NCBI GenBank assembly: GCA_963791045.1
Contig: CAWBQK010000013.1
Span: forward strand, 256,001 to 320,000
Direction of reading: 5' to 3'
DNA: 64,000 bases
Source of the DNA: Candidatus Latescibacterota bacterium
GTDB taxonomy: Bacteria; Krumholzibacteriota; Krumholzibacteriia; WVZY01
Shown: in pieces, positions 9,031-35,287 of the stretch
How positions within the stretch are numbered: the stretch's first letter is position 1
How the letters are laid out: each line of letters opens with the position of its first letter
Made by a program: the position numbers and the translations under genes
The notes under the pieces: generated by a model
Seen by the model: only the letters and a program-made list of their open reading frames with translations
What the model was told of the DNA's origin: nothing
Database searches by the model: none

Positions 9031-9201
9031 AGATACACACACTCCCTCTTATTCAAATTGCTAGAAGTTGATATCCGGCCAAACTGGCTGCGGCGCACGA
9101 GCCGGATTGCGTTGGGCGATGGGCAATGATTTCCTGATTGTACATATAAGCAAAGTGGGACAGAGCTTAGCGGATGATGATCTGGAAATCAACAGTCTTC
9201 G

Positions 9202-16056: not shown

Positions 16057-19000
16057 ATGACTACGCTTCTTCGCCTTGGGTTCGCCATTGCCATCATCGT
16101 AACCGTCCTGTCGCCGTACTCGGTGCGCGCCGTCGAACCAGGGACAAATGATCTTGGTTTTCTCGAGGGCATAAGCCTCATCGAACTCGAGACGGACGAC
16201 ATCGCTTCGATGCACGTCGCCCGCCGGTTGATTCAATCTTACGGCGGCACCGTCGCCATCATGTCGCCCCCTTCTCTTCTCGTCGGCGTGATACCGTATG
16301 AGATTCGCGATCAACTCATCGGAAAAACGGGAATCAAGGACATCTATCATACCGAGGTACTTCCCGGCGAAGTCCAGACGAACGATTCGAGATCGGAAGC
16401 GATGGTCGGATTCTTTAACGCCGCCGTCAGAGGCGAACTGGCCGCGGATCGGGACCGGTTTATACAGTCGGTAACGGCGGACGGCCCGCGCGAACAACGC
16501 GAGCCCGACCTTTTTTCGGCTGACGACATCGACCCCCGCGCTTACCTCGATAACCTGCTGGCCAACGGGCTGGACGCTAAAAAACTCGAAGAAGAGGGTC
16601 TTCCCCTCAACCCGACCACGATGGCCACCGCGGGCAACAGCGACTACATGACGGGCACAGTGGCGTTGACGCTTTTCTTCGTGGAAAGCGACGGCACCGG
16701 TTCCGACCCGGATCAGTACACATGGACGCCCGAACACATGCAGAATTATATAAACGGCGTGGGAACCGCGCTCTACTGGTGGTCCAGCCGCGCCGCGCAG
16801 CACGGGGACTGTTGGGTTACCTTCCTCATCAATTATTATTCGGGAGCCGACGAGAGATGTCAGCAGTGGGTCGAACCGATTCTGCATACCACTGAATACG
16901 AGGAAACGTGGATTAACGAAATCATGTCGAACTTCGGTTACACATCGGGAACTCGCTTTTCCCGTGTTAGTGCTTTCAACACCTGGCAGCGATCGTATTA
17001 CAACACCGACCGCTCGTATTCGGCTTTCATCCCTTACAACCCGGCCCCCGCGGCGGCAAGCTTTCCCGGAGGCGGAACGGCATACGCATACTGGTATGGC
17101 CCGCATACGGTTTTGCTCTACCACGTTCAGGGATGGACGACCGCCGAGGTATTCGCTCACGAAACCGGCCATATCTTCGGCGCCTGCGACGAGTATGCGG
17201 GCGGGTGCTCATCGCCCACGTACGTTTGTGCCAACGGCGTAATCAACGGCAATTGCGAAGTCGGCAATCCCGACAGCCGCGACTGCATGATGAAAGAAAA
17301 CTCGTTCTCAGTTTGCACGTACACAGTGAGTCATCTTGGTTGGGAGATTAACAACCCATGTGCACCGGCGGAACCGCCTCTTCTCCCCACGGTGACATTG
17401 TCGACGGTCGATCCTCCGTCCGGATTCCACGGAGTGGACACATCGATCACTCTTTTTGGATCCAATTTCTACCCCGGGATCAGACTGGAAATGGGGGACG
17501 ACATCTTCGTCCACGGGATCGATATTATCAACGACCACACGCTTATCGCCCATACGACGGTTCTCGCATCCGCTCCCCCGGGACTTCGCAACGCCCGGGT
17601 CTTCAACCGTGACGGTCAGTTCGCGACACTCACGGATGTATTCGAAGTTCTCCCCACGACGCGGCACTATTATTCGCCCACGGGCGGGGACGGTCCTCCC
17701 TATCTGTCGCCGGCAAACGCGGCCACGTCGTTTGAAGACGCCATCGCAGCCACCTACGACGGCGATACGCTCTTCGTCGTGACGATGACCTTTGACGACT
17801 TTTCGCTCATCGTCAATCACGGCGTTGTTTTTCACGGCGGATGGAACAACGATTTCAGCGCCCGTGACCTTGAAACCGGCAAGACGCTTGTTAACCTGAA
17901 CGCCATAAACGGCAACATCACTTTTACCGGCGCGTCGCAAAACGCGGGGTTCGATGGATTTACAATCCAGAACGGCACCGGCGTGTATGACTTTTTCCCC
18001 TTCGGCGCCTATTTTGGCGGCGCGGTCCGATTCGTCGGGGGCAGTGCGGTCATCGCCAATTGTGAAATCAGTTCCAGCGCGGCGGGTGGCCCGATGAACT
18101 ACGGTCTTGGAGGAGCGGTCTTCGCCGACGGGTGCCAGGTAGACATTCGTGACAGTTATATCCACGACAACGCGGCGACCCAGGGCGGCGCCCTGTACCT
18201 CCGCGGATGCACAGGGACGGTCTCGGGCAATACAATCTCGGGCAACTCGCTATTCGCATCGCCCGAAACTCTTGTTGGCGGCGGCGTTGCCATCGTCGAC
18301 TCGCCGGAAATGATTTTGACGGATAATGTCTTTTCGTCGAATACCTCCGCTGCGGAGGGCGGCGGGCTTTATGTCGAAAACTGCCCCAACCTGACAATGA
18401 CCGGCGGCTCTCTATCAGCAAACGAGGCATCCTTCGCCGGCGGCGGTGTCAGGCTCAAGAAAACGACCGCCGTAATAGACGGGGTCGAGTTCAACGGCAA
18501 CACCAGCGCCGGCCTCGGCGGCGGACTCGCCGCCATCGACTCGACCAACGCCACACTGTCAACGTCGACTTTTGTGTCCAACTCCGCCGCGGTCGGAGGG
18601 GGCGCTTATGCAACGGCCGGCTCTTTCTTTGTGACCCACAACCTCTTCACCGGCAATGCGTCGGCAAGCACCGGCGGCGCGCTGGTGGTGAGCGTAACAA
18701 ATTCCGGAACCGTAATCGGAAACACGCTCAACGCCAACTCGGCAAGCGGTGTGGGAGGATTGCTGGTCGGCGGAGACGTTGAGATTTTCAATAATATTGT
18801 CACAAACAACACGGGGCTGGGCGTTTCGTCCACCTCGGGACAACCCCCCGTCTTGTCTCACAACCTCACGTGGAACAACTCGGGCGGGGACTATTCGAAT
18901 TGCACGCCGGGCGACGGTTCGATATCCGCCGACCCGATCTTCGTCGATCCCGCGGGCGGCGATTATCACCTGGCGCTTCATTCTCCGGCGATCGACGCGG

Positions 19001-19671
19001 GTATTGTAAACGGTTTGTACACGGACCCAGATGGATCGCGCGGGGATCTGGGAGTCTACGGCTCGCACACATTCCAGATGGAACAGCCTGCCTTCACCAA
19101 CAACCTGGCGGCTGACGTGGAGGGGGCAAACGTGGTTCTCGAATGGGACAAAAATCCCGAGAGCGACATCGCCAATTATGCCGTTTATTGCGACACCATC
19201 GGAGGCTTCACCCCTTCAGAGTTGAATTTTGTCGCGCTCGTCTCGGGATCCGACTCGACAACAACACTCGACCTTCCCGCGGATTCCTCGTACTATGTTG
19301 TCTCCGCCGTCGACACCGGCGGCTACGCGGGCGGTTACTCGGCGGCGGCATCGATTTCGCCTGCCACGGGTATCGGAGATCGTGTCACGCGCTATGAATA
19401 CAAGCTGGGACAGAACGTACCCAACCCGTTCAATCCGGTGACAACCATCGCCTATCAGCTTCCCGCAAGAACCAACGTCGAGTTGAATGTTTACGATGTC
19501 AACGGCCGCCTGGTGCGGCGGTTGGTATCGCAGTCACAGGGAGCGGGATCCTACTCGATCACATGGGCGGGAAAAAACGATTACGGAGAACCCGTGGCTT
19601 CCGGTGTCTATTTTTACCGTCTCAATACGGGCAGCTTTGTCAAAACACGAAAAATGGTTCTTTTGAAATAG
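16057..19671 (+). CDS. Secreted metzincin metalloprotease with beta-helix repeats and C-terminal FlgD-Ig/T9SS-like domain
   Basis: Signal peptide, HETGHIFGACDEY, DCMM Met-turn, repeated N.A..GGG(L/A) parallel beta-helix motifs, and LGQNVPNPFNPVTTI...ASGVYFYRL...KMVLLK tail. Confidence 0.85.
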   Translation: MTTLLRLGFAIAIIVTVLSPYSVRAVEPGTNDLGFLEGISLIELETDDIASMHVARRLIQSYGGTVAIMSPPSLLVGVIPYEIRDQLIGKTGIKDIYHTEVLPGEVQTNDSRSEAMVGFFNAAVRGELAADRDRFIQSVTADGPREQREPDLFSADDIDPRAYLDNLLANGLDAKKLEEEGLPLNPTTMATAGNSDYMTGTVALTLFFVESDGTGSDPDQYTWTPEHMQNYINGVGTALYWWSSRAAQHGDCWVTFLINYYSGADERCQQWVEPILHTTEYEETWINEIMSNFGYTSGTRFSRVSAFNTWQRSYYNTDRSYSAFIPYNPAPAAASFPGGGTAYAYWYGPHTVLLYHVQGWTTAEVFAHETGHIFGACDEYAGGCSSPTYVCANGVINGNCEVGNPDSRDCMMKENSFSVCTYTVSHLGWEINNPCAPAEPPLLPTVTLSTVDPPSGFHGVDTSITLFGSNFYPGIRLEMGDDIFVHGIDIINDHTLIAHTTVLASAPPGLRNARVFNRDGQFATLTDVFEVLPTTRHYYSPTGGDGPPYLSPANAATSFEDAIAATYDGDTLFVVTMTFDDFSLIVNHGVVFHGGWNNDFSARDLETGKTLVNLNAINGNITFTGASQNAGFDGFTIQNGTGVYDFFPFGAYFGGAVRFVGGSAVIANCEISSSAAGGPMNYGLGGAVFADGCQVDIRDSYIHDNAATQGGALYLRGCTGTVSGNTISGNSLFASPETLVGGGVAIVDSPEMILTDNVFSSNTSAAEGGGLYVENCPNLTMTGGSLSANEASFAGGGVRLKKTTAVIDGVEFNGNTSAGLGGGLAAIDSTNATLSTSTFVSNSAAVGGGAYATAGSFFVTHNLFTGNASASTGGALVVSVTNSGTVIGNTLNANSASGVGGLLVGGDVEIFNNIVTNNTGLGVSSTSGQPPVLSHNLTWNNSGGDYSNCTPGDGSISADPIFVDPAGGDYHLALHSPAIDAGIVNGLYTDPDGSRGDLGVYGSHTFQMEQPAFTNNLAADVEGANVVLEWDKNPESDIANYAVYCDTIGGFTPSELNFVALVSGSDSTTTLDLPADSSYYVVSAVDTGGYAGGYSAAASISPATGIGDRVTRYEYKLGQNVPNPFNPVTTIAYQLPARTNVELNVYDVNGRLVRRLVSQSQGAGSYSITWAGKNDYGEPVASGVYFYRLNTGSFVKTRKMVLLK

Positions 19672-20160: not shown

Positions 20161-20562
20161 TCAGCCGAGCGAGGCTATGACGTCGCGGAGGTCTCCCTCC
20201 AGGGGAAGCGCCTTGTTCGTCTTCGCATCAACAACAACGAAGGTGACTTCCGCGTCCGCGACGACATCGTCGGTATCGGCAAAATGAATTTCCTGGCGGA
20301 CCGTCGCGCTTTTTTCGCCCAGCCTCGACAGCGCGCATCTCACCTCGAGAAGATCACCGAGCATAGCGGCACGGCGGTAGTTGATCGTTATGTTTACGAT
20401 AGTAAACGCCAGGCCGCGCTCGAGCCACGCACCGATATCGATTTTCTCTTCGATGAGTTCCCACCGCGCGTCCTCAAGAAACTCTAAATACCGCGCATTG
20501 TTGACATGGCCATATACATCGAGATGATAGCCGCGAACCTTTATGCGTGTGTTATATGTCAT
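20161..20562 (-). CDS. Acyl-CoA thioesterase (YbgC/FadM hotdog fold)
   Basis: VRGYHLDVYGHVNNARYLEFLEDARW. Confidence 0.9.
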   Translation of the reverse strand: MTYNTRIKVRGYHLDVYGHVNNARYLEFLEDARWELIEEKIDIGAWLERGLAFTIVNITINYRRAAMLGDLLEVRCALSRLGEKSATVRQEIHFADTDDVVADAEVTFVVVDAKTNKALPLEGDLRDVIASLG

Positions 20563-20681
20563 CGATTTTACCCGGCGCAAGAAATGATAAAAGTCTTGTT
20601 CAAATCAAAGACCCGGAAACGGGACCTCGCCGGCCCCGCCCCGGGTATTTGACTTCATCAGTCGAAGAACATCTCAATCGA

Positions 20682-22247
20682 TTACTCTTCAACCTGCCAC
20701 ACGGTATCGATAACCGTTCCATCAACCCACTTAATGACGGCGATCGGCTTATCGGTTACCGGCGGTTCCTCCGGCTTGCCGCCGATGATTCCTTCGATCT
20801 CGTCTTTGAGATCACGGATACGGCGAATCGGGAGACTCGTGTTCTTAACCGCTTTGAGCAAATCCTTCCGCCGAGGATTGATGGCGATCCCGCGCTCAGT
20901 GATCACGACATCGACGAGTTCGCCGGGGCCGGTCACCGTGGTCACCTTGTCGACGATCACCGGTATCCGGTCGCGGAAAGAAGGAATGGCGAGAATCGTA
21001 CATCCCGAGGCGAGACAGTTTTGCCAGCCGCCGATGCCGTGGAGCAGGTAGCCGTCCGAATGGGTCACGACATTGGCGTTGAAATTAACATCAACCTCGG
21101 TCGCCCCCAGAACCGCCGCGTCGACCAGACTGGCGAAGTTGCCCTTCCCGTGGAAGTTGTACGACGTAAACGGCGTCGTCGCTACGTGCGAAGGGTTTGA
21201 ACCGATCGACTCGACGGCGGCGAGATCAAACGTCTGTCCGTCGAGGATGTAATCGGTGAGCCCCTCGTTCAACATATCGACAAGATACTGTGTCGATCCG
21301 CCGCGGACAAAACGCGCCTTGACGCCGTCTTCGCGCATCATGTTTTTGAGAATCTCGACGAAGGCCAGAGCGATGCCGCCGGCACCCGCCTGGATGGAGA
21401 ACCCATCGCGCATGATCCCCGATTCCCGTATAAAACGGGCCACATATTCAGCGGTGAGAAGCCGGTCGGGACTCTTCGTGATTTGCGTCGTGCCCGATAC
21501 GATCTTCGCCGGATCGCCGATCTTATCTACTTCGACAACAAAATCCACATTGTTGCCTTGCACCTGCCACGGGATGCACGGAAAGGGGACGATGTTGTCG
21601 GTGACGACAATTACACGATCCGCATGAATCGAATCGGCGAGTGCGAAACCGATCGAGCCGCAGGCCGAAGGCCCGTGCGATCCGTCCGAGTTGCCAAACG
21701 GATCCGCCGTCGGCGCCGCGATAACAGCGACATCGACGTGAACCTCGCCGTCCTGGATCGCCTGCCAACGGCCGCCGTGCGATCGCAGCACACCCAGGCC
21801 GCGCATCTTACCGTGCGACGCGTAGCGCCCGAGGGGGCCGTTCATACTTCCCTCGATATGATGGATCACACCGCGATCCATAAGATCTATCATCGGCTCA
21901 TGACACGGAAACGACGCGGTCGGGAACCACATCAAGTCCTTGACCCCGAGTTCGGCTGCGGCGCCGAGCGCCATGTTCGCCACCTTGTCTCCGTTGCGGA
22001 GATGGTGGTGACTCGATATCGTCATCCCGTCCTTGAGTCCGCATTTCTTGAGAGCTGTCTTGAGATCGCGAACGCGCTTGTCCCCGTTTGCCGGATAATC
22101 CCGGCACGAACGAATCGGCGCCCCATACTTGTGACCTTTGGGTTTGTACGCGCCGACTCCCAGATAGGGAACCTGCTCGCGACCGTTAACAATCTTGGGG
22201 ACTTTTCGCCCCACCTTATTCACGACAAAGTCGGATTTACCGCTCAT
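20682..22247 (-). CDS. citF: Citrate lyase alpha subunit / citrate CoA-transferase
   Basis: GLKDGMTISSHHHLRNGD, RSHGGR, QAGAGG, LGATEVDVNFNANV, TERGIAINPRR. Confidence 0.93.
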   Translation of the reverse strand: MSGKSDFVVNKVGRKVPKIVNGREQVPYLGVGAYKPKGHKYGAPIRSCRDYPANGDKRVRDLKTALKKCGLKDGMTISSHHHLRNGDKVANMALGAAAELGVKDLMWFPTASFPCHEPMIDLMDRGVIHHIEGSMNGPLGRYASHGKMRGLGVLRSHGGRWQAIQDGEVHVDVAVIAAPTADPFGNSDGSHGPSACGSIGFALADSIHADRVIVVTDNIVPFPCIPWQVQGNNVDFVVEVDKIGDPAKIVSGTTQITKSPDRLLTAEYVARFIRESGIMRDGFSIQAGAGGIALAFVEILKNMMREDGVKARFVRGGSTQYLVDMLNEGLTDYILDGQTFDLAAVESIGSNPSHVATTPFTSYNFHGKGNFASLVDAAVLGATEVDVNFNANVVTHSDGYLLHGIGGWQNCLASGCTILAIPSFRDRIPVIVDKVTTVTGPGELVDVVITERGIAINPRRKDLLKAVKNTSLPIRRIRDLKDEIEGIIGGKPEEPPVTDKPIAVIKWVDGTVIDTVWQVEE

Positions 22248-22284
22248 TGTCTGCCTCCACGATCAGTCGTTTTGTTTGCGTATC

Positions 22285-23544
22285 TTACTTTTTTGAAATC
22301 AACCCCGCGCGTTTCGCCGTTTCCACGAGCCGTTGTGCCCGCAGCACGACCGGCGGGTCGACCATCTTCGTCCCCAGGCTGACGACGCTTAAGCCTTTCT
22401 TCTTTGCGGCATCGAAAGCGGCAACGATCTTGAGCGCCTTTTCGATTTCTTCGGGTCCGGGGGCGAACGCCTCGTGAATCACCCGGATCTGACGGGGGTG
22501 AATACACCCCATTCCTTCGAATCCAAGACCGCGGGCGCGAACACCCCACGCTTTGAGACCGTCCGAGTCGCCCACATCCCCGTAGACCGAATCGATCGCC
22601 TGCACGCCGGCGGCACGCGCCGCGTTGGCCAGGCGGACACGCGCGAACTGCGATTCGTCTCCCTCCCTGGTCTTGCGAACGCCCATGTCGGCGGTATAAT
22701 CCTCGAGCCCGATGGTCAGAGCCACCACGGTATCGGCCGCGCCCGCTATCGCAAACGCGTTCTCGACACCAAGCGCTGACTCGATGATCGGCATCAACCA
22801 CACCGGCGATTTGATTTTGTGCTGCCCTTGGATCTTTTTGATCCGCTTGTCGACGTCGGCCACTTGTTCGGCGGTTTCGACCTTCGGGATCAACACCAGG
22901 TCCGGCGACTCCGGAATGATTTCGTCGAGATCATCGAGTCCCATGGGAAGCTGGTTTATCCGGACCATCCGTTCGGCGCCGAGAAAATCGATGCATCGAA
23001 GTCCGTTTCTGACCAGAATCCGGGCCGAGTCTTTCTCGCCGGGATGAACCGAATCCTCGAGATCGAGAATCACGGCGTCGGGTCTATGAATTCCCGCATT
23101 TATCGCGAATTTGGGTTCGTTACCGGGAAGATAGAGCCTCGACCTGCGCAGCCGGTCGCTTGCCGTCGGTCCCGACTGCTTGATCTTCCGCCCGATCGGT
23201 GTGCGTCCCTTGCACCCGGCGCGCCTTAGCGCCGTCTCAACTCTCGCGCCAATAACGAACGGCAGCCCTCCCTTGTCTTCGACTTCAACCCTGGCGTTCT
23301 TGACACCGTAACCGGCGAGAACCTTCTTTACCGTCTCGCGGATCGACTTGCCAAAAAACGCCTCGACCTTCGAACGGAGCTTGAGTTCCACGCCTCCTTT
23401 GTCCGACAATGTCACCGATACAAAGAGATCGGACTTTACATCGTCTCCGCGGCGGCCGGCCTCGCCTTTCTTCGGCGCGGGCCGCTTCGCCCGCGCGCCC
23501 GCGCGTCCCCGTGCTTTCACGGTTTTCTTCTTTGCTTTGGGCAT
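22285..23544 (-). CDS. CitD (ACP)-CitE (citryl-CoA lyase) fusion
   Basis: N-terminal SD...SKVEAFFG.SIRET...VEDKG...ARVETALRRA is CitD-like. It is followed by RRSRLYLPGN, LDLEDSV, VRIN, IPKVE, IIESA, GLEDY and CIHPRQI of CitE. Confidence 0.9.
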   Translation of the reverse strand: MPKAKKKTVKARGRAGARAKRPAPKKGEAGRRGDDVKSDLFVSVTLSDKGGVELKLRSKVEAFFGKSIRETVKKVLAGYGVKNARVEVEDKGGLPFVIGARVETALRRAGCKGRTPIGRKIKQSGPTASDRLRRSRLYLPGNEPKFAINAGIHRPDAVILDLEDSVHPGEKDSARILVRNGLRCIDFLGAERMVRINQLPMGLDDLDEIIPESPDLVLIPKVETAEQVADVDKRIKKIQGQHKIKSPVWLMPIIESALGVENAFAIAGAADTVVALTIGLEDYTADMGVRKTREGDESQFARVRLANAARAAGVQAIDSVYGDVGDSDGLKAWGVRARGLGFEGMGCIHPRQIRVIHEAFAPGPEEIEKALKIVAAFDAAKKKGLSVVSLGTKMVDPPVVLRAQRLVETAKRAGLISKK

Positions 23545-23569
23545 TTCCCTTCCTCTTTTCCGCGTAAAC

Positions 23570-24751
23570 CTAGAGCTTCGAAATAATCGCGTCGGTCATC
23601 TGTATCGCCGTCGCCGCACCCTTAGAAATAGCGTCGGGCCCACCCGCGAGTTTCATCATATCGTACGGGCGAACCTTGCCTTCCTTGACAACCGCGGCAA
23701 CCGCGTCGCGCATCCGCTTCGCCTTGTCGCCTTCGCCCACATGATCGACGAGCATCGCCGCGCTCAACACCATCGCGATCGGGTTGACGATCGGCGGATC
23801 GAGGTTTTCATATTTTGGCGCCGAGCCGTGCGTGGGCTCGAATACGGCGACTTCGTCGCCTATATTTCCCGAGCAGGCAAACCCGAGACCGCCGACAAGA
23901 CCGGCGAACGCATCGGAAACGATGTCGCCAAAGAGATTGCCCGCGACGACCACGCCGTAGATTTCCGGATTCTTGGTCAGCCACATCATCTGCGCATCAA
24001 TATTGGTCGACCACAGTTCGATATCAGGATACTTCTCCTTCACGCTGGCCGCCACGTCTTCGAGCATTCCCGAAGTCTCACGAAGCACGTTCGGCTTTTC
24101 GCAAACGGTGACCGATGGGTACCCGTGTTTCTTCGCGTAGGCGAAAGCGGCCTCCATGATTCGCGTGCACGCATTGCGCGTAAACATGCGGACAGACACC
24201 GCCAAATCTTCGCCTTTGACATCCGCAAACGGTTTGTATTTTGGATGGGTCCCGAAACCCTTCCGCACCTCTTCGGGCGGATTTGTCCATTCCAGGCCGC
24301 AGTAGAGCCCCTCCGTGTTCTGACGGAAGATCACCGCGTCGACTTTCGGCTCTTCGAAGCCACCGTCGGCGGTCTGGCGGATAAAGTTGAGTGGATTGCC
24401 GGGGAACGACCGGCAGGGACGGATACAAACATCGAGATTGAATTTCTGCCGCATCCCGACGATCGGGCTGAAGTAGACGTATCCCTTGTCACGAAGCTCT
24501 GGGCTGAGCTCTTCGGCGGCCTTGTTTTTCGGCTTCGAAGTGATCGCGCCGAACAACCCCAGCTTGTGTTCTTTCAAGAGCTTGAGGGTTCTGTCGGGGA
24601 GCGGATTTCCCTCTTTGATCCAGAAGTCCCAACCAATATCCGCATGAACGTAATCCGCCTCAAACCCAACCGCCTCCAACACCCGTACGGACTCCGGAAG
24701 AACCACTTTGCCGATACCGTCACCGGGCATCGTTACTACTGTACGCTTCAT
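23570..24751 (-). CDS. Isocitrate/isopropylmalate dehydrogenase family, homoisocitrate dehydrogenase-like
   Basis: PGDGIG, LFGAITS, YFSPIVGMRQ, RQNTEGLY, NLFGDIVSD, FEPTHGSAP. Confidence 0.88.
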   Translation of the reverse strand: MKRTVVTMPGDGIGKVVLPESVRVLEAVGFEADYVHADIGWDFWIKEGNPLPDRTLKLLKEHKLGLFGAITSKPKNKAAEELSPELRDKGYVYFSPIVGMRQKFNLDVCIRPCRSFPGNPLNFIRQTADGGFEEPKVDAVIFRQNTEGLYCGLEWTNPPEEVRKGFGTHPKYKPFADVKGEDLAVSVRMFTRNACTRIMEAAFAYAKKHGYPSVTVCEKPNVLRETSGMLEDVAASVKEKYPDIELWSTNIDAQMMWLTKNPEIYGVVVAGNLFGDIVSDAFAGLVGGLGFACSGNIGDEVAVFEPTHGSAPKYENLDPPIVNPIAMVLSAAMLVDHVGEGDKAKRMRDAVAAVVKEGKVRPYDMMKLAGGPDAISKGAATAIQMTDAIISKL

Positions 24752-24793
24752 AATCGTTACATCCCCCTTCACAAATGTTTGTTTTTGAAATCG

Positions 24794-26749
24794 CTACGAG
24801 AGACCGAGTCGTTTGCGAACGAGATTCTCGATGCCTCCCGCGATCACCAGCGACTGAGGAACCGAACCCAGCGGCGGGAAACCGAACGTTTCGCCTCGGT
24901 GGGTCAATGTTCCGCGTGAAAAATCGATGACCAGCTCGTCGCCGGGAATAATCGTCGGCTTGCCCGATTCGATGTCACTCGCGAGTTCTTCGCGGAGCCG
25001 TTGGACGAGTTCCGGACATTCGATACACACAAATCCGTTGTTGTAAGCGTTTCGCAAATACGTCTGCGAAAAGCTTCCAGCTATAACAAGTGCGATGCCC
25101 TTCGCCTGAAAGGCAGTCGCCGCCTGCTCGCGACTCGATCCCGTTCCGAAATTGTTCCCTCCGACGAGCACATCGCCCTCGAATGTGTTTTTCGAAAACT
25201 CGGGATCGTAGTTCTCCATCAGGACACGCGACATTTCCTCGCGTGTCATTCCCTCTTTGTAGGTATAGTCCTTGCCGTAGATCCCATCGGTGTTGAGATT
25301 GTCCTGCGGGACAAATACGAGACGTCCCTGGATCTTCTCGGGGAACCCCGATTGAATCTCCACGCTCTCACCACCGGCGCCGGGGCCGGATTCGATTACA
25401 GAGAACTGTTTGTCGGGACTGCGCCCGTCGACGACATCGGGGCCGGTGATAAAACCGGCGATGGCCGACGCGGCAACTACTTGTGGACTCGCCAGATACG
25501 CCTGCGCGTCGCGCGACCCCATTCGACCTTTGAAGTTCCTGTTCGTCGCCGAGATCCCTACCTCTCCGGGCTCGAGAAGCCCGGTCCCAAGACCGATGCA
25601 CGGTCCGCATCCGGGGGGAAGCGGACGCGCGCCCGCCTCCAGGAGCGTCCCCCATACACCGCTGGCTTCCGCGGCATCCTGGATTTCCCGGCTGGCTGCG
25701 GCAACGTAGAACTCGACACCGTCCGCGATTTTTTTGTCTTTCAACACGGCCGCGGCGACTTCAAGATCGTTGTACCGGCTGTTCACGCACGAGACAAGGT
25801 ACGCTTTGCGAATCGCAATTTTCTCTTTTTCGATATCGAAAACCGATCGCATCACCTGGACCGAATCGGGCCCCGATACATGCGGACTAACATCTTCCAA
25901 GTTCACTTCAATCCGGGCCGCGTAGTTCGCGTCACCGTCCGGCGACGGCGGGCTGGTCTCCCAGTTTGCAATGTCACCTTCGGTAAACCGCTCAACACCC
26001 TGGGCGCTGAGCACGGCATGCCGTTCTTTGAGATATCGGATCGTAACGTCGTCGACCGGGAACCATCCAACAAGCGCTCCCCACTCGGTCGTCATGTTTG
26101 AAATGGCCATCCGCTCATCCATGCTCAAACCCGCGACGCCGAGCCCCGTGAACTCCACCGCGGCGTTAAGCACCTCGCCCTTGTTGTAAAGACCGCAGAG
26201 CGTGACGATGACATCCTTGCCCGTGACGCCTTCGCGAAGTTTGCCGCTGAAAACAACTTCAATCGTGCGCGGAATCTGCCACCAGAACTCGCCGGTGGCC
26301 CAAATCGCGGCCGCATCGGTCCTGACGACCGGCGTCCCAAGCGCGCCGAGCGCCCCGTACATGTTCGAATGCGAGTCCGACCCCACGACCAGCGAGCCGG
26401 GAACGACATAGCCGTTTGCGACCATGATCTGGTGCCCGATCCCCGTCCCGGCGGGATAGTGATCAACACCCTGCTCGGCGGCAAATTCGGCGATAGCCTT
26501 GTACTTCGCCAGGTTGGCCTCGGATGTATTCTGGATATCGTGATCGAGCGGAAAAACCGGCTGCCGCGGGTCGTGGATTTTCGCGGCGCCGATCGCCTTG
26601 AACTTGTTCATAACCGCCGCGGTGTTATCGTGCGTCATGACGTGCCGCGGACGCAACGACACGACGTCGCCGACACGCACCGGCCGGTCGGGCCCCTCGG
26701 TCATGTGCGCCTGGACAATTTTTTCGACAATGGTCTGCCCCATTATCAT
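24794..26749 (-). CDS. lysF: Homoaconitase, single-chain fungal Lys4/LysF type
   Basis: MTHDN, DHDIQN, GIGHQ, SDSHSNMYG, SCVNSR, GCGPCIG, NRNFKGRMG, and a fused swivel domain DNLNTDGIY...NFGTGSSREQA. Confidence 0.88.
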   Translation of the reverse strand: MIMGQTIVEKIVQAHMTEGPDRPVRVGDVVSLRPRHVMTHDNTAAVMNKFKAIGAAKIHDPRQPVFPLDHDIQNTSEANLAKYKAIAEFAAEQGVDHYPAGTGIGHQIMVANGYVVPGSLVVGSDSHSNMYGALGALGTPVVRTDAAAIWATGEFWWQIPRTIEVVFSGKLREGVTGKDVIVTLCGLYNKGEVLNAAVEFTGLGVAGLSMDERMAISNMTTEWGALVGWFPVDDVTIRYLKERHAVLSAQGVERFTEGDIANWETSPPSPDGDANYAARIEVNLEDVSPHVSGPDSVQVMRSVFDIEKEKIAIRKAYLVSCVNSRYNDLEVAAAVLKDKKIADGVEFYVAAASREIQDAAEASGVWGTLLEAGARPLPPGCGPCIGLGTGLLEPGEVGISATNRNFKGRMGSRDAQAYLASPQVVAASAIAGFITGPDVVDGRSPDKQFSVIESGPGAGGESVEIQSGFPEKIQGRLVFVPQDNLNTDGIYGKDYTYKEGMTREEMSRVLMENYDPEFSKNTFEGDVLVGGNNFGTGSSREQAATAFQAKGIALVIAGSFSQTYLRNAYNNGFVCIECPELVQRLREELASDIESGKPTIIPGDELVIDFSRGTLTHRGETFGFPPLGSVPQSLVIAGGIENLVRKRLGLS

Positions 26750-26796
26750 CCTCCCATGTGTACTCGTGCAGATGGCACAAAATCGTGTACGTCACG

Positions 26797-26892
26797 GCAC
26801 CGAGTGGACAAAGGTTTTTGGTGAATCCGCAGGACGCTAATATTCAAATGCGTCCGAGGACCTGAACAAAAAAACCTTCGTCCACTCGGTGC
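26797..26892 (-). other. Long intergenic stem-loop (23-bp inverted repeat with inner hairpin)
   Basis: GCACCGAGTGGACAAAGGTTTTT (26797-26819) pairs with AAAAACCTTCGTCCACTCGGTGC (26870-26892). Inner GGACGC/GCGTCC stem. Confidence 0.85.
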
Positions 26893-26905
26893 GTATCCTT
26901 CTCCG

Positions 26906-28285
26906 CTAGCGAATATCCGCTTTGCAGAGATCCATCAGTTCGGTGATCGAGCCGATATTTTCGAGGCCCCACACCGCGTCCTTCAACCGTTTCCTCGCGT
27001 CGTCCGACAGGACCGGCCTGGCCAACGCGTCAAACTTGTCTTCGATTTCGGCATCGGTGAGCGGGTTGCGTGGATCGCCTTTTGGATAGTCGAGCTGTTT
27101 TTCGAATTCCTTCCCGTCCGTCGTCGTGACCTTAACCTTCACACGCTGGAGTTCGGGGAAAACAGCTTCGATCTCCGGATCGGCAACCACCACGACCTTG
27201 TTCAGCTGCTCGCGGATCTTGTCATCCATGATCCGCTCCTGCTCGAACTGCGCCGGTGTCACCTGACGGTCGACAATCGCCGCCGCAATCACGTAGGGCA
27301 AACTGTGATCCGCCGTCTCCTTCGAGCGCGGGTCGTACTTGCTTGGGTCCGCGAGAATGTCCGCCGCACGAGCGAGTGAGCGGATGTGGACCTCTTTGAC
27401 CTGGTCGGGCGAAAGATCATTTTCAGTTATAATATCGAGAGTGGCCGATATAGGCGCGTGTGTCAGTGCTTCGGTCGGAAATGCTTTCATCCCGCATTTT
27501 TCAATACGCCACGAATCTCCAAGCCCATCGGTCAAAATATTCAGCTTCCATTCGGGGCCGAAACAATGGGTCAGGCCTTCCTTGCCATCGACGACATGCT
27601 CGGGTCCCGTGTAGCCTTTTTCGGCGAGCAGCGCCGCCATCACGCCACTCTGCGTCGCCATCGGATCGACGGTGTTCTTCATCATCGTAAGCTTCCCAGC
27701 CGTAACCGCACCGAGCGTTGAGTGCCGCGAGGCGGAAATACCGATGGCGTGCTGGATCTTTTCCCAGTCGAGACCCAGCATCCAGCCGGCAACGATCGGA
27801 GAAACAAAAGCGGTCAGTGTCGCGTGGTGCCAACCGCGCTCCCGGATCCCGGGGAACGCCGCTTCGCAGAACCGCATCTCAAACTCATGACCCAAAACGA
27901 TACCTACGATCAAGTCTTTGCCGTTTCCGCCGGCCCTTTCACCGCAGGCGAGCGCCGCTGGAATAATATCCGATGGGTGCGACGGATCCTGCTGCCAGTA
28001 AATGTCGTTGTAATCCATGACACGAACCATCAACGCGTTGGCAAGCGACGCCGTCACCGCGTCGGTTTTCTTTCCCGTACCGAGAATAGTCGCGTTTCCC
28101 TTGCCGCCGATTTCCTCGAGGACATCGAGCGCGATCTCCGCGTCTTCCTGGCGCAGTCCGCCAAACGCACACCCCAGAGAATCAAGTAGATAACGCCGCG
28201 CTTCGTGAACGGCGTTCTCGCCGATGTGTTCGAACTTCAAATCGGCGGCCCAGCGAGCCATTTTGGCTGTAATTGTTTCCGACAT
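26906..28285 (-). CDS. MmgE/PrpD family dehydratase
   Basis: LLDSLGC, VRVMDYND, SHPSD, GWHH, KETADHSLPY, PKGDPRNP. Confidence 0.92.
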   Translation of the reverse strand: MSETITAKMARWAADLKFEHIGENAVHEARRYLLDSLGCAFGGLRQEDAEIALDVLEEIGGKGNATILGTGKKTDAVTASLANALMVRVMDYNDIYWQQDPSHPSDIIPAALACGERAGGNGKDLIVGIVLGHEFEMRFCEAAFPGIRERGWHHATLTAFVSPIVAGWMLGLDWEKIQHAIGISASRHSTLGAVTAGKLTMMKNTVDPMATQSGVMAALLAEKGYTGPEHVVDGKEGLTHCFGPEWKLNILTDGLGDSWRIEKCGMKAFPTEALTHAPISATLDIITENDLSPDQVKEVHIRSLARAADILADPSKYDPRSKETADHSLPYVIAAAIVDRQVTPAQFEQERIMDDKIREQLNKVVVVADPEIEAVFPELQRVKVKVTTTDGKEFEKQLDYPKGDPRNPLTDAEIEDKFDALARPVLSDDARKRLKDAVWGLENIGSITELMDLCKADIR

Positions 28286-28338
28286 CCCTAAATCGCCTCC
28301 GCTTCTTGCAACCGGTTCGTCTTGAGACCGGGCAACTA

Positions 28339-28875
28339 CTAAAGGTTTTTGAATGGTAGGAAGCTCATAAAGTCCGCATGATGAACTATGGTCGCTTCGG
28401 TGGTTCTTTTGACGAGTTCCCCTTCACCTGCATGTGCGGCGATGATGTGACACACATCGTCGGGCACTCCGCATTCCATCGCGAGGGCCACACCGGTAAA
28501 AGGATGTCTGAGAAGTTTTCCCCGCACACTCTGCTTCGCCTCGCCGTCTATTTTCTCGTATTCGAGAAGTTTCCCGACATCGGCGAGAATGGCTCCCGCG
28601 ATTACAGTATCCATGTCAATCGCGAGCGCTTTTCCCAAAAATTCCTTCATCGCTTCCGCTGATTTTCGCGCGATGTGCACAACACATCTTTTGTGTTCCA
28701 TAAAAGTCGATGGGCAATTCGGAACGAGCAGCGTAAAAGGAATTCGTTCCAGATCGTCCGCGGTGAGCGGACTCAATTCCAACGCTTTCATCCACGTCTT
28801 TTCAACACTCTCACGAAGCTCGGCATTCTCAATCCATTCCAACTCCGGCCAGAGTTTCGCCACTGCCTCACGCAT
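28339..28875 (-). CDS. HD/HDIG-domain protein
   Basis: EHKRCV...GAILADVGKLLEY...RHPFTG...HIIAAH...VHHAD. RBS CAGGAGG. Confidence 0.85.
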   Translation of the reverse strand: MREAVAKLWPELEWIENAELRESVEKTWMKALELSPLTADDLERIPFTLLVPNCPSTFMEHKRCVVHIARKSAEAMKEFLGKALAIDMDTVIAGAILADVGKLLEYEKIDGEAKQSVRGKLLRHPFTGVALAMECGVPDDVCHIIAAHAGEGELVKRTTEATIVHHADFMSFLPFKNL

Positions 28876-28956
28876 CGAAAATTCCTCCTGCGAAGATACC
28901 GTTGTTCCGGCCCGTTCCGGCGGGCCACAGGCCCCATATCCATTACTCAACACAAC

Positions 28957-28985
28957 AGATTACGTGGTCTCAAAGCCAATGTCAA
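28957..28985 (-). promoter_or_regulatory. Sigma70-like promoter of the HD-prpD-lysF-dh-citDE-citF operon
   Basis: Minus strand TTGACA-17 nt-TAATCT. Confidence 0.6.
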
Positions 28986-29041: not shown

Positions 29042-29743
29042 TTACAACGATGCGAAGGAGTCCATCGCCTCAGATATAAACATCTCGACGAGCCGCCGAT
29101 CCTTGCGGCCCGACTCGTCCTCGACACCCGTATGGGAATCAACCCCGGCGGGGCGAACGACACGGATAGCCTCGGAAACGTTACCGGGGGTGAGCCCCCC
29201 GGCGAGGATAACCGGAAGCGGCGAAAGCTCGACGAGCCGCCGACTGACCGACCAGTCGTGGGTCTTGCCCGTCGCCCCCGACCGGCCCGTGGCGGGATCG
29301 AAAGTATCCGTCAGGAAAGCGTCGACAAAGGGGCTCATTTTCTCGACGTCGGCGAGAAGATCGGAGAAACTCTCCCTCCGAACAATGAGCGATTTGATCA
29401 CAAAGAGGTCTCCGGCGCACCTTCCCAGGGCGGCGAGTTCTTCGAGCGCCAGATCGCCTTGCAGCTGGACGGCCGGGGCGTTGACGTCCCGGCACAAAGC
29501 CTGGATCTCCTCGGCGCGGTCGAGATAAGTAATCACGATCCCGTGTAACGGCGGCCGGAGCGAATCGATTATCGCTCGCGCCGCTTTCTCAGAGAGGTCC
29601 TCCCTGCCACCGCCAAGACGAAGCGGAAATCCGAGGGACCCGGCGCCGCATTCGCTTACCATTTTCGCCTCATCGTCATCGATGATTCCGGCAATTTGAA
29701 TCAGCGGCCGGCCGTCCTGGAATATTCGGGGTTTGTTCTTCAT
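29042..29743 (-). CDS. trpF: Phosphoribosylanthranilate isomerase (orphan)
   Basis: IQIAGI, VQLQG, GATGKTHDW, ILAGGLTPGNV..AI..VRPAGVDSHTGVE...KD. Confidence 0.85.
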   Translation of the reverse strand: MKNKPRIFQDGRPLIQIAGIIDDDEAKMVSECGAGSLGFPLRLGGGREDLSEKAARAIIDSLRPPLHGIVITYLDRAEEIQALCRDVNAPAVQLQGDLALEELAALGRCAGDLFVIKSLIVRRESFSDLLADVEKMSPFVDAFLTDTFDPATGRSGATGKTHDWSVSRRLVELSPLPVILAGGLTPGNVSEAIRVVRPAGVDSHTGVEDESGRKDRRLVEMFISEAMDSFASL

Positions 29744-31974: not shown

Positions 31975-33747
31975 TCAAAGCGGCCAGAAAACAGGGATGA
32001 GGAATGTGGCGGCGATCCACAAAATCAGATTGAGCGCCAGACCGATCCGCAGGTAGTCGCGGAAGAAATATCCGCCCGGACCCATTACAAGAAGGTTGGT
32101 TTGATACCCGATCGGCGTGGCAAAACACGCGCTGGCGCCAAACGCGACGGCGATGAGAAGCGGCTTGGGGTCGACCCCCATCTCTCGGGCAATCTCGAGA
32201 ACAAGGGGCGTGAGAAGAACCGCCGTTGCGTTGTTGGTCAGGAACGCCGAAAGCAAACTCGTTATGAAGTACACAATCGCGATCAACATCGTCGGGCCAA
32301 AATTGTCCGCGATTCCAATCACTCCGCGGGCCAGGAGCTCCGCCATGCCTGTTTTTTCCATCGCGATCCCGAGCGGAAGGGTGGCGGCAATAAGGAGAAG
32401 AACCGAGCTTTCAAGCGACCGAAAGGCTTCCCGAACCCGCAAACACCTGACCAGCATCATCAACGCCGCCCCCCCGACGGCGAGAATCGACAGCGGCATC
32501 CAGCCGAACGTGGCGCCGACAATGACGAGAACCATAATCAAAAACGCGATCGGCGCGTTCTTTGGGAAGCGAAGGGTCCTTTCAACTCCCTCGACGAGAA
32601 GCACGTCGCCCGTCGCCTGGAGTTCGTAGAGCGAGCTTTCCTCGCCCTGAATCAACAACACGTCGCCCACCTGGAGTTTCATCTCGCGAAGGCGTTCATG
32701 GAGATGGCGCCCCATTCGTTGAACGGCGAGGACCTTGATCCCATAATGCCTGTTAAGACCGATTTCGCCCAACCGAAGATTGAAAAACGGCGAGTTCGGC
32801 GTGACAACAGCCTCAACCACATGGAGATCCATCCGGCTGATACGAACGCGTTGTGTGTCCGCGACTGCCGACGCCAGGTCGATGCCCTGTCTTTCGAGAA
32901 GCGTGTGGATCCCACGTGCCGTTCCCTCGACAAGAAGCGTGTCACCGGTTTCTATCTCTGTGTTGTCCGGGGGGCCCAAAAGAACATCTTCACCCCGGAC
33001 GAGCTCGAGGATTTTCACGTCTTCGATGCCCGAAACCAGCCCCCCCAGGTTGTCGCCTGACAACCGGCTCTTGTCGGGGACAATTATTTCGGTCACAAAC
33101 CGGCTCCTGTGCTGGCGTTCGAGAAGCTGACTCAAGACCTTTCGCTTTGGCAGCAACTTGTTTGCAAAGAGCAGGATGAACCCACCCCCCAGCACGAGGT
33201 AACACAAACCCATCGGCGTGAACTCGAACATCCCGAACCCTTCACCACCCGCCTGTTTGTAAAGACTGTGAACCAGGATATTTGTGCTGGTGCCCACAAG
33301 GGTCAACGTCCCGCCGAGAATCGCAAAGTAACTCAACGGAATCATCAGTTTTGACGGCAGAACCTGCGTTTGCTGGCAGATTCTCAGCACCACAGGAATC
33401 ATCATGATCACGACGGCGGTGTTATTCAGGAACGCGCTGGGGACAGCGGCGAGTCCCGCGATAATCAGAAGGAGAACTTTCGGGTCACGAACCGGAACAC
33501 TGGTAGCCAGGCGGGCGACATAGTCGACCGCGCCGGTTTTTGACAATCCCGCGCTCAAAACAAACATCGCGGCGATGGTTATCGTAGCCTCGTTCGCAAA
33601 GCCCGACATCGCTTCCGCGGGCGTCAGAATTCCCGCGGCGGGAAGCGCGAATATGATCAGCAGCGCCGTCAATTCGTACCGCAGCGCCTGGCTCACCATG
33701 AGCGCAAACGCCGCTATGAGAATCAATGTCAGCGCGATCATATCCAT
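31975..33747 (-). CDS. SLC13/DASS family permease with TrkA-C domains
   Basis: SAFLNNT, LVGTSTN, FLTNNATA and TPIGYQTN motifs, with two central TrkA-C regions. Confidence 0.9.
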   Translation of the reverse strand: MDMIALTLILIAAFALMVSQALRYELTALLIIFALPAAGILTPAEAMSGFANEATITIAAMFVLSAGLSKTGAVDYVARLATSVPVRDPKVLLLIIAGLAAVPSAFLNNTAVVIMMIPVVLRICQQTQVLPSKLMIPLSYFAILGGTLTLVGTSTNILVHSLYKQAGGEGFGMFEFTPMGLCYLVLGGGFILLFANKLLPKRKVLSQLLERQHRSRFVTEIIVPDKSRLSGDNLGGLVSGIEDVKILELVRGEDVLLGPPDNTEIETGDTLLVEGTARGIHTLLERQGIDLASAVADTQRVRISRMDLHVVEAVVTPNSPFFNLRLGEIGLNRHYGIKVLAVQRMGRHLHERLREMKLQVGDVLLIQGEESSLYELQATGDVLLVEGVERTLRFPKNAPIAFLIMVLVIVGATFGWMPLSILAVGGAALMMLVRCLRVREAFRSLESSVLLLIAATLPLGIAMEKTGMAELLARGVIGIADNFGPTMLIAIVYFITSLLSAFLTNNATAVLLTPLVLEIAREMGVDPKPLLIAVAFGASACFATPIGYQTNLLVMGPGGYFFRDYLRIGLALNLILWIAATFLIPVFWPL

Positions 33748-33777: not shown

Positions 33778-35227
33778 TTATTCGATATCGGCCGCCACTT
33801 CGTTAATCAATTTCCACGCCTGTTCGACGTGCCGCGCTTCCGTCATCGCCTGACCGATACAAAACCGGAGAGTCAGGCGGTCGTCTACTCGAGTATGTGT
33901 CAAATACAGCCGTCCGCTTTTGTTCAAACGGTCCATGATGGTCTGGTTCACGTCGTCACCACCCGTGTGTCTGAAACACACAAGATTGAGAGGAGCTGGA
34001 GCGGCAAGTTCGAACCGGCCACTCTCGACGATCCATGACGCGAACTCCTGGGCAAGCTCAACGTGTCGGCGGACGTGATGCGCCAGACCTTCGACCCCGT
34101 AGTGCCGGATTACAAACCACAACTTCAGGGCACGAAACCGCCGGCCCAGCTGCACGTGCCAGTCGCGGTAATCGATAACCGCACCCGACCGCGTTGCCTC
34201 GTTTCTCAAATACTCGGGCAGTATGGTCAAGGCATCGATAAGCGCTTTGCGGTCCCTCACATAGAAACAGTCACAGTCGAAATTCGTAAACATCCACTTG
34301 TGCGGATTGAAGCAATAACTGTCCGCGAGTTCCAGCCCATCGTGAATCCATCGGAACTCCGGGCAAACCGCAGCGGTGCCAGACATGGCTGCGTCGGCAT
34401 GCAGCCACAGTCCATGTTCCCGGCAGATCTTGCCGATTTCGCCGCAGAGGGTCCATCGCATTCGTCGATGTGGTTCCGACCGTGGCACTGACAAAAAATG
34501 GCTCGAGTCCATTCTGCAAATCCTCGGCGACCTTTCGCGACAGATCATCGGGCCGCATCGCCAGAGCGTCGTCGACATCGACACTGCGCAGATTTTTGCG
34601 CCCGATGCCGGCGATCCTGACTCCTTTTTCGATCGAAGAATGACCCTGGCTTGATGTGTACGCAATTAGCTTTCCATTACAGCCGGATTCGTTTGATTCC
34701 AGCCCCGTAAACCGCTCTCGCGCCGCTATCAACGCGCACAGCGAGGCGCTCGAAGCCGTATCCTGTATCACGCCCCCACCCGGGCCGGTCGAGAGAAATC
34801 CCGACGGAAGGCCGAGCATCTCGACGAGCCAGTCGAGCACCTGGGTCTCAAGTTCGGTGCAGGCCGGGCTCGTCGCCCACAGCATCCCCTGGACACCCAA
34901 CCCGGAAGAAATCATGTCACCGAGAATCGACGGGCCCGATGTGTTTGACGGGAAATATGCAAAAAAATTCGGCGATTGCCAGTGGGTGACACCGGGCAGG
35001 ATGATTCGACCAACGTCATCCAGGATCGAGGCGAACGCCTCGCCCTTTTGCGGCGGACGATCGGGAAGAGCATCGCGAATATCCCCGGGGGACACTTTTG
35101 AGAGAACGTCCATCTTCTCCACGTTCTCGTGGTAGTCGGCGATCCAATCGACGACCATCCTTCCGAACTCCCTGAATTCGTCCGGAGTCATGTGGTAACT
35201 CATTGTTTCACAAGGTCTTTTGGGCAT
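33778..35227 (-). CDS. PLP-dependent aromatic amino acid decarboxylase (group II), frameshift near 34444
   Basis: THWQSPNFFAYFP, SPACTELE, HSSIEK in one frame. WLHADAA, NPHKW (PLP lysine) and LGRRFRALKLW in the next frame. Confidence 0.9.
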
Positions 35228-35287
35228 GGGCTTCTCCTCAAATTCCCGCGCGGATCCTGTCGCCGATCGCCCCACTCTTCGTTTGGT

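Follow-up and report, generated by a model that had tools for sequence, protein, structure and literature searches.

A conserved six-gene operon of tricarboxylate enzymes in Latescibacterota and other phyla: a candidate homocitrate-type pathway

Gene content and conservation of the operon

This report concerns a six-gene operon in a 64,000-nucleotide stretch of a Candidatus Latescibacterota genome (contig CAWBQK010000013.1, positions 256,001 to 320,000), and it is this whole stretch that we call the window. The six open reading frames (ORFs) are consecutive and co-oriented on the minus strand (20682-28953), are separated by intergenic gaps of 21-156 nt and encode, in order, an HD-fold protein, an MmgE/PrpD-family protein, a fused homoaconitase, an Iso_dh-family dehydrogenase, a CitD-CitE fusion and CitF. 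An earlier note on this DNA had claimed six co-oriented genes, and the Pfam and NCBIfam profile searches of the ORF translations by which we assigned gene families confirmed all six as real minus-strand ORFs of the families named. The genes, and the motif that precedes them, are as follows:

28957..28985, minus strand: promoter-like motif TTGACA-17-TAATCT upstream of the HD gene, read in the sequence and putative
28339..28875, minus strand: HD-fold protein, 178 aa (Pfam HD and TIGR00277 HDIG; ORF open to 28953)
26906..28285, minus strand: MmgE/PrpD-family protein, 459 aa (PF03972 and PF19305)
24794..26749, minus strand: fused large and small aconitase-family hydratase, 651 aa, Lys4-type (TIGR00139; Pfam Aconitase and Aconitase_C)
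23570..24772, minus strand: Iso_dh-family beta-decarboxylating dehydrogenase, 400 aa from a GTG or 393 aa from the ATG at 24751 (PF00180)
22285..23544, minus strand: CitD-CitE fusion, 419 aa (PF06857 at residues 37-109; PF03328 at residues 134-350)
20682..22247, minus strand: CitF-type transferase (lyase alpha subunit), 521 aa (PF04223, 440 bits)

The neighbourhood, whose lack of conservation would have refuted the reading of the earlier note, proved to be conserved. We compared the 80 best loci, 57 of which had room for the whole operon (at least 700 nt upstream and at least 8600 nt downstream of the start of the PrpD-like gene), and 54 of these 57, spread over several phyla, have the complete set in the same order and on a single strand; in the other three, either no HD match was found (L061 and L071) or both lyase genes are absent (L067). 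The median identities to the window proteins are 62-77%. In 77 of the 80 loci the HD gene immediately precedes the PrpD-like gene (73-82% identity of the HD protein); the homoaconitase-type hydratase is present in 78 of them (61-79% identity), the CitD-CitE fusion in 63 and CitF in 61. A scan of one genome per species gave at least 567 genome stretches that encode a PrpD-like relative, at least 578 metagenome stretches hold relatives of the module, and the best 120 of 8000 scored database relatives of the PrpD-like protein are all at least 81% identical to it. The locus records are labelled Latescibacterota, Gemmatimonadota, Rhodothermales, Acidobacteriota (mostly Terriglobales) and Thermoanaerobaculia. 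We did not accept a locus labelled Akkermansiaceae (L028/G006) as an independent phylum: it groups with the Gemmatimonadota genome sample of G002, and its bin or label is probably wrong. Within the Gemmatimonadota, only 12 of the 201 sampled genomes have the module.

No such constancy was found around the six genes. All-against-all clustering of 4583 ORFs from the 80 loci yielded no other neighbour family common to the represented phyla, and a Pfam search of 133 flank ORFs at 19 loci found neighbours that are lineage-specific only. An ADP-forming acyl-CoA synthetase and a thiolase lie directly downstream of the operon in L010 and L015, the flanks of L006, L007 and L026 hold thiolase/HMG-CoA-synthase-like genes, that of L020 an acyl-CoA dehydrogenase and a citrate synthase, and that of L037 electron-transfer flavoprotein genes. 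Because the six genes are colinear across phyla and no other neighbour is kept, we conclude that they are a self-contained metabolic module in changing surroundings. We found no published description of this operon in the open-access literature, subscription journals lying outside our search, and among the open-access matches listed for homoaconitase with homocitrate, judged by their listing, there was fungal or unrelated work and no bacterial operon of this kind.

The promoter claimed in the earlier note was there in position, with TTGACA at 28985-28980, a 17-nt spacer and TAATCT at 28962-28957. Its strength did not hold up: the -10 element agrees with the consensus at only 3 of 6 positions, a consensus promoter scan did not call the motif, and that scan returned 8 promoter-like sites between 19500 and 30000, where 3.7 were expected. 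We regard the promoter as plausible but no better than chance. A look-up of the 8.3-kb stretch listed no RNA data set that contains it.

Enzyme families, variant operons and the likely substrate

What reactions might this set of proteins carry out? The gene labels in the earlier note stood as family assignments, with the reservations that its “PrpD” is not a PrpD orthologue and that its “homoisocitrate dehydrogenase” is correct at family level only. Against PrpD equivalog models the PrpD-like protein scores 92.7, 88.5 and 65.1 bits (cut-offs 950, 575 and 458), and among solved structures it comes closest to IDS epimerase (143 bits) and the IRG1/cis-aconitate decarboxylases (94-122 bits), true PrpD reaching only 56-63 bits; with scores so far below the cut-offs and these other enzymes nearer, we rejected the orthologue label. 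We propose instead that it is a dehydratase for the tertiary-alcohol (homocitrate-type) half of an isomerisation. The hydratase, whose large and small domains are fused in one chain, matches TIGR00139 (h_aconitase) at equivalog level, with 739.4 bits versus a cut-off of 529.9, and has the large subunit of Methanocaldococcus jannaschii homoaconitase (4kp2) as its best solved relative. This homoaconitase score is the strongest pointer to a homo-substrate, which we favour.

The dehydrogenase is an ambiguous guide to the substrate. It finds its best NCBIfam matches in the methanogen homoisocitrate dehydrogenases AksF2 and AksF (259 and 253 bits versus cut-offs of 540 and 500). Where the NAD-dependent isocitrate dehydrogenase 6lky reads “SVNVTLR”, the window protein reads “SPIVGMR”, the Ser being kept and Ile replacing the Asn of S-x-N. 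The window protein also has “HGSAPKY”, kept in at least 95% of 66 sequences, where two NAD-dependent relatives, the Thermus homoisocitrate dehydrogenase and 6lky, have “HGSAPDI”. We take “KY” to be the NADP signature of E. coli isocitrate dehydrogenase, and the enzyme is probably of the NADP(H) type.

The last two genes of the operon encode a citrate-lyase-like set. CitF is 37% identical to E. coli CitF over 481 residues and scores 490.3 bits on TIGR01584, the cut-off of which is 501.45. CitE, 38% identical to its E. coli counterpart, does not reach equivalog level (TIGR01588, 261.5 bits versus 443.4), and the CitD part, also 38% identical to that of E. coli, passes its model (TIGR01608, 67 bits versus 63.5). 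In CitD, at least 90% of 60 sequences retain Ser38 of an (R/K)SD motif; in an ungapped alignment E. coli CitD Ser14, presumably the serine that bears the prosthetic group (E. coli/Klebsiella numbering), falls on Lys37, with the conserved Ser38 one residue later. The E. coli locus shows the full citCDEFXG set, and we found nothing comparable here: CitC, CitX and CitG (PF08218, PF03802 and PF01874) have no match in the window genome (G000, a 3.66 Mb assembly that is 81% complete), and CitG and CitX each occur in none of five complete carrier genomes, the E. coli positive control giving matches. In the wider and more doubtful reading set out further below, this helper-less CitD-CitE/CitF would be a new kind of citrate-lyase-like enzyme, either one without the phosphoribosyl-dephospho-CoA arm or one to which the arm is attached by another route.

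Taken together, these assignments suggest a module in which a 2-oxo acid on one side, and its next-shorter homologue plus an acetyl unit on the other, are interconverted via citrate-like tricarboxylates. In the reading that we tentatively prefer, this would be the reversible conversion 2-oxoadipate + CO2 + NADPH <-> homocitrate <-> 2-oxoglutarate + acetate, used mainly for lysine-derived 2-oxoadipate. The Iso_dh-family enzyme would catalyse 2-oxoadipate + CO2 + NADPH <-> homoisocitrate, the Lys4-type hydratase homoisocitrate <-> cis-homoaconitate, the MmgE/PrpD-family enzyme, as second dehydratase, cis-homoaconitate <-> homocitrate, and the CitF transferase with the CitD-CitE lyase homocitrate <-> 2-oxoglutarate + acetate. 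The main direction would be cleavage, making the module a carbon-conserving outlet for lysine-derived 2-aminoadipate/2-oxoadipate. What the data show directly are the gene families, the conservation of the unit, its modular swaps and the missing CitC/G/X helpers; the substrates, the direction and the role of the HD protein we infer.

Divergent forms of the operon bear on these assignments. A search of the 201 Gemmatimonadota genomes with the HD protein returned 11 close copies (74-79% identity), one partial copy and four divergent ones (40-46%), the last marking four variant loci, L147 (genome G033) and L148-L150 (G017, G020 and G023). In all four variant operons the HD gene adjoins an Iso_dh gene. 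The G033 variant retains a PrpD-like gene and a Lys4-type hydratase (TIGR00139, 670 bits); those of G017, G020 and G023 have no PrpD-like gene and carry two aconitase-family large/small sets instead. CitDE and CitF occur in none of the four, and L147, L149 and L150 have succinyl-CoA-ligase-like beta and alpha subunits plus a citryl-CoA lyase (CCL) above NCBIfam cut-offs (NF004869, 277 and 256 bits versus a cut-off of 212); in G023 (L150) the alpha subunit is fused to the CCL, and in G017 only a beta-like subunit was resolved.

Further arrangements were found in the metagenomes. The gene order of G033 recurs in L160 and L169, and L215 has the reordered set Iso_dh-HD-hydratase-PrpD-CitDE-CitF. 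In L162 (3097-9288) and L165 the operon includes a CCL-type gene (citrate-synthase fold), and a CitF-type transferase stands divergent to it with no CitD/CitE, a hybrid set that would be an ATP-independent, CoA-dependent version of the cleavage. Some metagenome loci have the PrpD-like gene alone or with Iso_dh only, and at L182:6701-11341 a PrpD-like gene (about 55% identical) directly follows sdhC-sdhD-sdhA-sdhB, with no other module gene within 10 kb.

Two proposals of the earlier note gain from these exchanges. It had suggested that the PrpD-like protein and the hydratase form a split aconitase; because a second aconitase-family pair replaces the PrpD-like gene in three of the four variant operons, the PrpD-like protein appears from these gene contents to be functionally interchangeable with an aconitase-family dehydratase, and this swap is what a split isomerase predicts. 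Such a division of labour has precedent, in that the homoaconitases of fungi and Thermus are confined to the step homoaconitate <-> homoisocitrate, a different enzyme supplying the homoaconitate (PMC3556520). The note's second proposal, a lyase at the end of the pathway, is supported by the exchange of CitDEF for a citryl-CoA synthetase (CCS)-like enzyme plus CCL in the variants and for CCL plus CitF in two metagenome loci. The C-C step is thus always of lyase type (CitDEF, CCS-like plus CCL, or CCL plus CitF) and never an HMGL-type synthase in the annotated loci. More broadly, the conservation of the operon and its modular swaps support the cautious (homo)citrate interpretation of the earlier note, in which substrate and direction were left open.

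Could the substrate be citrate itself? The operon would then be a reductive branch resembling that of the tricarboxylic acid (TCA) cycle, 2-oxoglutarate + CO2 + NADPH -> isocitrate -> citrate -> oxaloacetate + acetate/acetyl-CoA, serving, for example, glutamate catabolism or acetyl supply, or it would run in reverse. The CitF score (490 bits versus a citrate-lyase alpha cut-off of 501), the pairing in the variants of a CCL over the NF004869 cut-off with succinyl-CoA-ligase-like subunits, the NADP-type motif of the dehydrogenase and the PrpD-like gene after sdhCDAB in L182 would all suit this, but carriers of the module already hold an AcnA-type aconitase and separate isocitrate dehydrogenases, and with citrate one aconitase does both halves of the isomerisation, leaving the two dehydratases unexplained. 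A monomeric isocitrate dehydrogenase (1251 bits) is encoded in the complete Latescibacterota genome G001, there are 5-6 Iso_dh-family matches in each of the other four complete carriers, and the window genome has an AcnA-type aconitase elsewhere and its only citrate synthase on another contig. The dehydrogenase, moreover, is without the Asn of S-x-N, and the hydratase is homoaconitase-grade, such enzymes being inactive on citrate (PMC3556520). We consider citrate and isocitrate quite unlikely as the substrates. The separate idea that the module is the oxidative branch of the TCA cycle was rejected in view of the monomeric isocitrate dehydrogenase of G001, the aconitase and citrate synthase elsewhere in the window genome and the number of Iso_dh-family matches in the other complete carriers; the presence of the module in only 12 of the 201 Gemmatimonadota genomes likewise speaks against a housekeeping role.

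A different tricarboxylate or alkylmalate (2-methylcitrate, citramalate or longer homologues) is another alternative, as is a PrpD-like protein that acts as decarboxylase or epimerase on an itaconate-like compound. ACP-type citramalate lyase exists, the solved structures nearest to the PrpD-like protein are the epimerase and decarboxylases named above, CitE matches the model of the itaconate-degradation lyase RipC/Ccl (148 bits, below cut-off), and a Ser/Ile/Val pocket in the dehydrogenase would suit a less polar side chain. Yet the replacement by an aconitase pair in three variants and the equivalog score for homoaconitase argue for a dehydratase role, and the annotated flanks contain no itaconate CoA-transferase/hydratase or methylcitrate synthase/lyase genes; we judge this family of alternatives improbable. 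The earlier note had claimed that prpB/prpC, homocitrate synthase and lysW-type genes are absent from the window, and none is among its 51 Pfam-scanned ORFs, which include no citrate/methylcitrate synthase, HMGL-like synthase, isocitrate-lyase-family or LysW/LysX-type protein.

The HD-fold protein is the least expected member of the set. Its start is likely the ATG at 28875, because a GGAGG precedes it and 77 of the 80 related loci align from that Met. The match to Pfam HD is 33.9 bits, with a further match to TIGR00277 HDIG, and the AlphaFold model (pLDDT 83.5) retrieved generic HD-domain structures only, the best being YhaM (TM 0.59, E 3e-4). The canonical HD doublet reads AD (AILADVGK), as it does in at least 95% of 75 sequences; the Ala is found in all operons with a PrpD-like gene, and the His is intact in the three two-aconitase variants (L148, L149 and L150). 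Six potential metal ligands (H61, D99, H124, H148, H165 and D168) are invariant in 8 of 8 aligned variants. The HD protein is an obligatory component tied to the dehydrogenase/dehydratase core and not to the lyase. Since it travels with that core, and stays with Iso_dh and the dehydratases in variants without CitD, we rejected it as a helper of the CitD carrier in place of CitX, CitG or CitC.

Direction and a possible link to lysine metabolism

A major question is whether the module accompanies lysine breakdown, as an outlet for lysine-derived 2-oxoadipate would. Lysine 6-transaminase (TIGR03251 over cut-off) is present in 10/12 module-bearing versus 8/189 module-free Gemmatimonadota genomes (Fisher p = 1e-10) and in none of 14 control genomes. 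Piperideine-6-carboxylate dehydrogenase, which makes 2-aminoadipate, is over cut-off (NF050084) in 8 of 11 module-bearing genomes outside Terriglobales, in 0/10 module-free Gemmatimonadota and in 1/14 controls. The window genome carries it (784 bits, contig 17, with a peptidyl-dipeptidase adjoining), and in G033 it stands with a class-III aminotransferase divergently beside the variant operon, an Lrp-type regulator lying between. The saccharopine-dehydrogenase domain (9/12 carriers) was not counted as evidence for lysine, as that family also covers polyamine enzymes, and the 2-aminoadipate transaminase model NF049976 was uninformative, being over cut-off in 0/5 carriers and 0/14 controls.

Several observations weigh against homocitrate cleavage in the service of lysine catabolism. 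On an RpoB tree of 28 genomes the module changed state at least 5 times and the transaminase at least 4, which leaves only 5 independent contrasts; in these the transaminase followed the module in about 2.5, opposed it in 0 and did not differ in 2.5 (sign test p ~0.25), so that after phylogenetic control the association is not significant, a level that the sign test cannot attain with so few contrasts. Neither of the two markers, transaminase and NF050084 dehydrogenase, passes its cut-off in the six Terriglobales carriers, and G001, which has the piperideine-6-carboxylate dehydrogenase, has no transaminase or saccharopine-dehydrogenase domain. Adjacency to lysine-catabolic genes was seen in 0/80 metagenome loci (a tblastn search whose queries were the piperideine-6-carboxylate dehydrogenase and the aminotransferase of G033, together with the transaminase of G002, turned up only two weak matches, of 29% and 32% identity) and in 0/19 annotated genome loci, G033 being the sole case. 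As to the enzymes, the dehydrogenase is below every equivalog cut-off and has a Val aligned with the “R” of “airylr” in Thermus homoisocitrate dehydrogenase, an Arg that we take to be the substrate-determining Arg85, and CitF, near citrate-lyase grade (490 versus 501 bits), would fit citrate. Lastly, reductive carboxylation is an unusual opening step for a catabolic route.

Does the module instead run the other way, building 2-oxoadipate from 2-oxoglutarate + acetate (acetyl-CoA in the CCS/CCL variants), with a near-equilibrium lyase replacing homocitrate synthase and the product feeding 2-aminoadipate, lysine or another compound? We hold this to be unlikely. It draws some strength from the search for LysA (diaminopimelate decarboxylase, TIGR01048), in which no protein over cut-off was found in the complete genomes G001 and G002 or in G072, G017, G020 and G023 and that of the window genome was below cut-off, and from the HMGL-like synthases, of which there are none in the window genome (81% complete) or in G001, so that neither has a canonical homocitrate synthase. 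On the other hand, LysX (TIGR02144) is over cut-off in 0/12 carrier genomes (4/14 controls pass), and LysA is over cut-off in 10/12 module-bearing versus 13/20 module-free Gemmatimonadota (Fisher p = 0.42) and in 6/6 Terriglobales carriers, which argues against the module as a substitute for the diaminopimelate route. Each of the three C-C systems is of the cleavage type, the associated piperideine-6-carboxylate dehydrogenase works towards 2-aminoadipate, and the patchy distribution (12/201) fits an accessory trait. Because LysX is over cut-off in none of the 12 carriers and LysA is kept in carriers, a role in lysine synthesis is not supported, and by its gene content the module is neither the LysW-type/aminoadipate lysine pathway nor the methylcitrate cycle. 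The association with lysine biosynthesis or catabolism genes raised in the earlier note stood for the catabolic markers in the Gemmatimonadota counts, was not significant after phylogenetic control, failed in Terriglobales and found no support for biosynthesis.

Two further observations concern amino-acid genes in carriers. The three two-aconitase genomes (G017, G020 and G023) are all without LysA over cut-off; G023 has lysine 6-transaminase and G020 piperideine-6-carboxylate dehydrogenase. The window genome and G001 both have no HMGL-like synthase, no Iso_dh beyond that of the operon and no LysA over cut-off; both Latescibacterota are probably auxotrophic for leucine and perhaps for lysine, which fits the many peptidase genes in the window at 13456-14892 and 50078-53074.

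Returning to homocitrate cleavage, a wider version of the reading can be put forward, as a possibility and with some doubt: a widespread, horizontally shuffled “reverse homocitrate” pathway in several phyla, in which CO2 is fixed onto lysine-derived 2-oxoadipate, as a means of its disposal, and the resulting C7 acid is split into 2-oxoglutarate + acetate/acetyl-CoA, with an invariant core, interchangeable cleavage systems and a new kind of CitDEF. The invariant core would comprise a dehydrogenase of NADP type, a pair of dehydratases for one half-reaction each and a new metalloprotein with the HD fold.

Two genes that adjoin the operon in the window lie outside the conserved core:

20161..20580, minus strand: YbgC/4HBT-type acyl-CoA thioesterase, downstream (TIGR00051, 86 bits)
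29042..29743, minus strand: TrpF-like (PRAI) gene, upstream (PF00697; below equivalog cut-offs)

Among the 80 loci the thioesterase (64% identity) and the TrpF-like gene both recur only in L005, the closest relative of the window genome in the collections, which is likewise labelled Latescibacterota, has the same flanking genes and encodes a PrpD-like protein 88% identical to that of the window. A CitMHS-type transporter gene lies in the window at 31975-33747, and such genes are also near the L007 and L017 operons. About 500 nt from the thioesterase gene is the end of a plus-strand gene (16057-19671) for a 1204-aa secreted beta-helix protein with a type IX secretion system C-terminal sorting domain and a short metalloprotease-like motif, and on the minus strand at 6773-9042 a homogentisate-dioxygenase-like gene stands beside a glyoxalase/dioxygenase-fold gene, with a flavin reductase adjoining, which may indicate aromatic amino-acid catabolism. 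Two minus-strand genes of the window are broken. The pyridoxal-phosphate-dependent decarboxylase (PF00282) at 33778-35275 is split into overlapping ORFs, 34271-35275 (profile positions 1-218) and 33778-34665 (219-373), by a frameshift or assembly error, its L005 counterpart being intact (484 aa, L005:7055-8509). The AcrB-type resistance-nodulation-division (RND) transporter at 54257-57473 is split into overlapping ORFs 54804-57473 and 54257-54964; it belongs to an efflux operon with HlyD-like and OEP genes, and a second, intact RND operon is at 43786-50061.

Implications and comparison with known systems

If homocitrate cleavage is what the module does, it would be a new carbon-conserving link from lysine breakdown to the TCA cycle, in which steps of fungal lysine synthesis run backwards, and hundreds of abundant, poorly cultured species of soil and sediment would possess it. 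Annotation would change as well. The genes are now named separately as “citrate lyase”, “2-methylcitrate dehydratase” and “homoaconitase”, and metabolic models built on these names predict citrate fermentation, a methylcitrate cycle or lysine synthesis by way of aminoadipate; our data support none of the three. Two enzymological questions would also follow: how does a CitD-type carrier function without CitC/G/X, and what is the role of the invariant HD-fold partner?

Of the known systems, the alpha-aminoadipate pathway of fungi and Thermus likewise combines a homoaconitase-grade hydratase with an Iso_dh-family decarboxylating dehydrogenase, and it too divides the isomerisation between two enzymes (PMC3556520). 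The module differs from it in having a system of citrate-lyase or CCS/CCL type in place of the HMGL-type homocitrate synthase, a first dehydratase of the MmgE/PrpD family and not an aconitase, an added HD protein and no LysX-type lower pathway; its dehydrogenase has the NADP-type motif and no Arg85 equivalent, and its direction is likely reversed. The methylcitrate cycle also pairs an MmgE/PrpD-family enzyme with an aconitase-family hydratase for a substituted citrate (PMC3556520), but the protein here is not a PrpD orthologue, prpB/prpC are absent, and a dehydrogenase and a lyase take the place of methylisocitrate lyase.

At the lyase end, the E. coli/Klebsiella citrate lyase CitCDEFXG (EC 4.1.3.6) has the same D-E-F order and CitD-like domain, with the 37% (CitF) and 38% (CitE) identities given above. 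In the module, however, CitD is fused to CitE, CitC/X/G are missing, the unit has no citrate transporter or regulator, and the lyase shares its operon with isomerase and dehydrogenase genes. The combination of CCS with CCL is familiar from the reductive TCA cycle of Hydrogenobacter. Likeness to its CcsAB/Ccl is confined to the relatives L147, L149 and L150 and does not extend to the window, and in these variants the CCS/CCL genes are linked to homoaconitase-type, Iso_dh and HD genes and not to a CO2-fixation set. Finally, the HD protein shares a common fold with the HD-domain metal-dependent phosphohydrolases, whose H...HD...D motif is altered here in that the His of the doublet is Ala.

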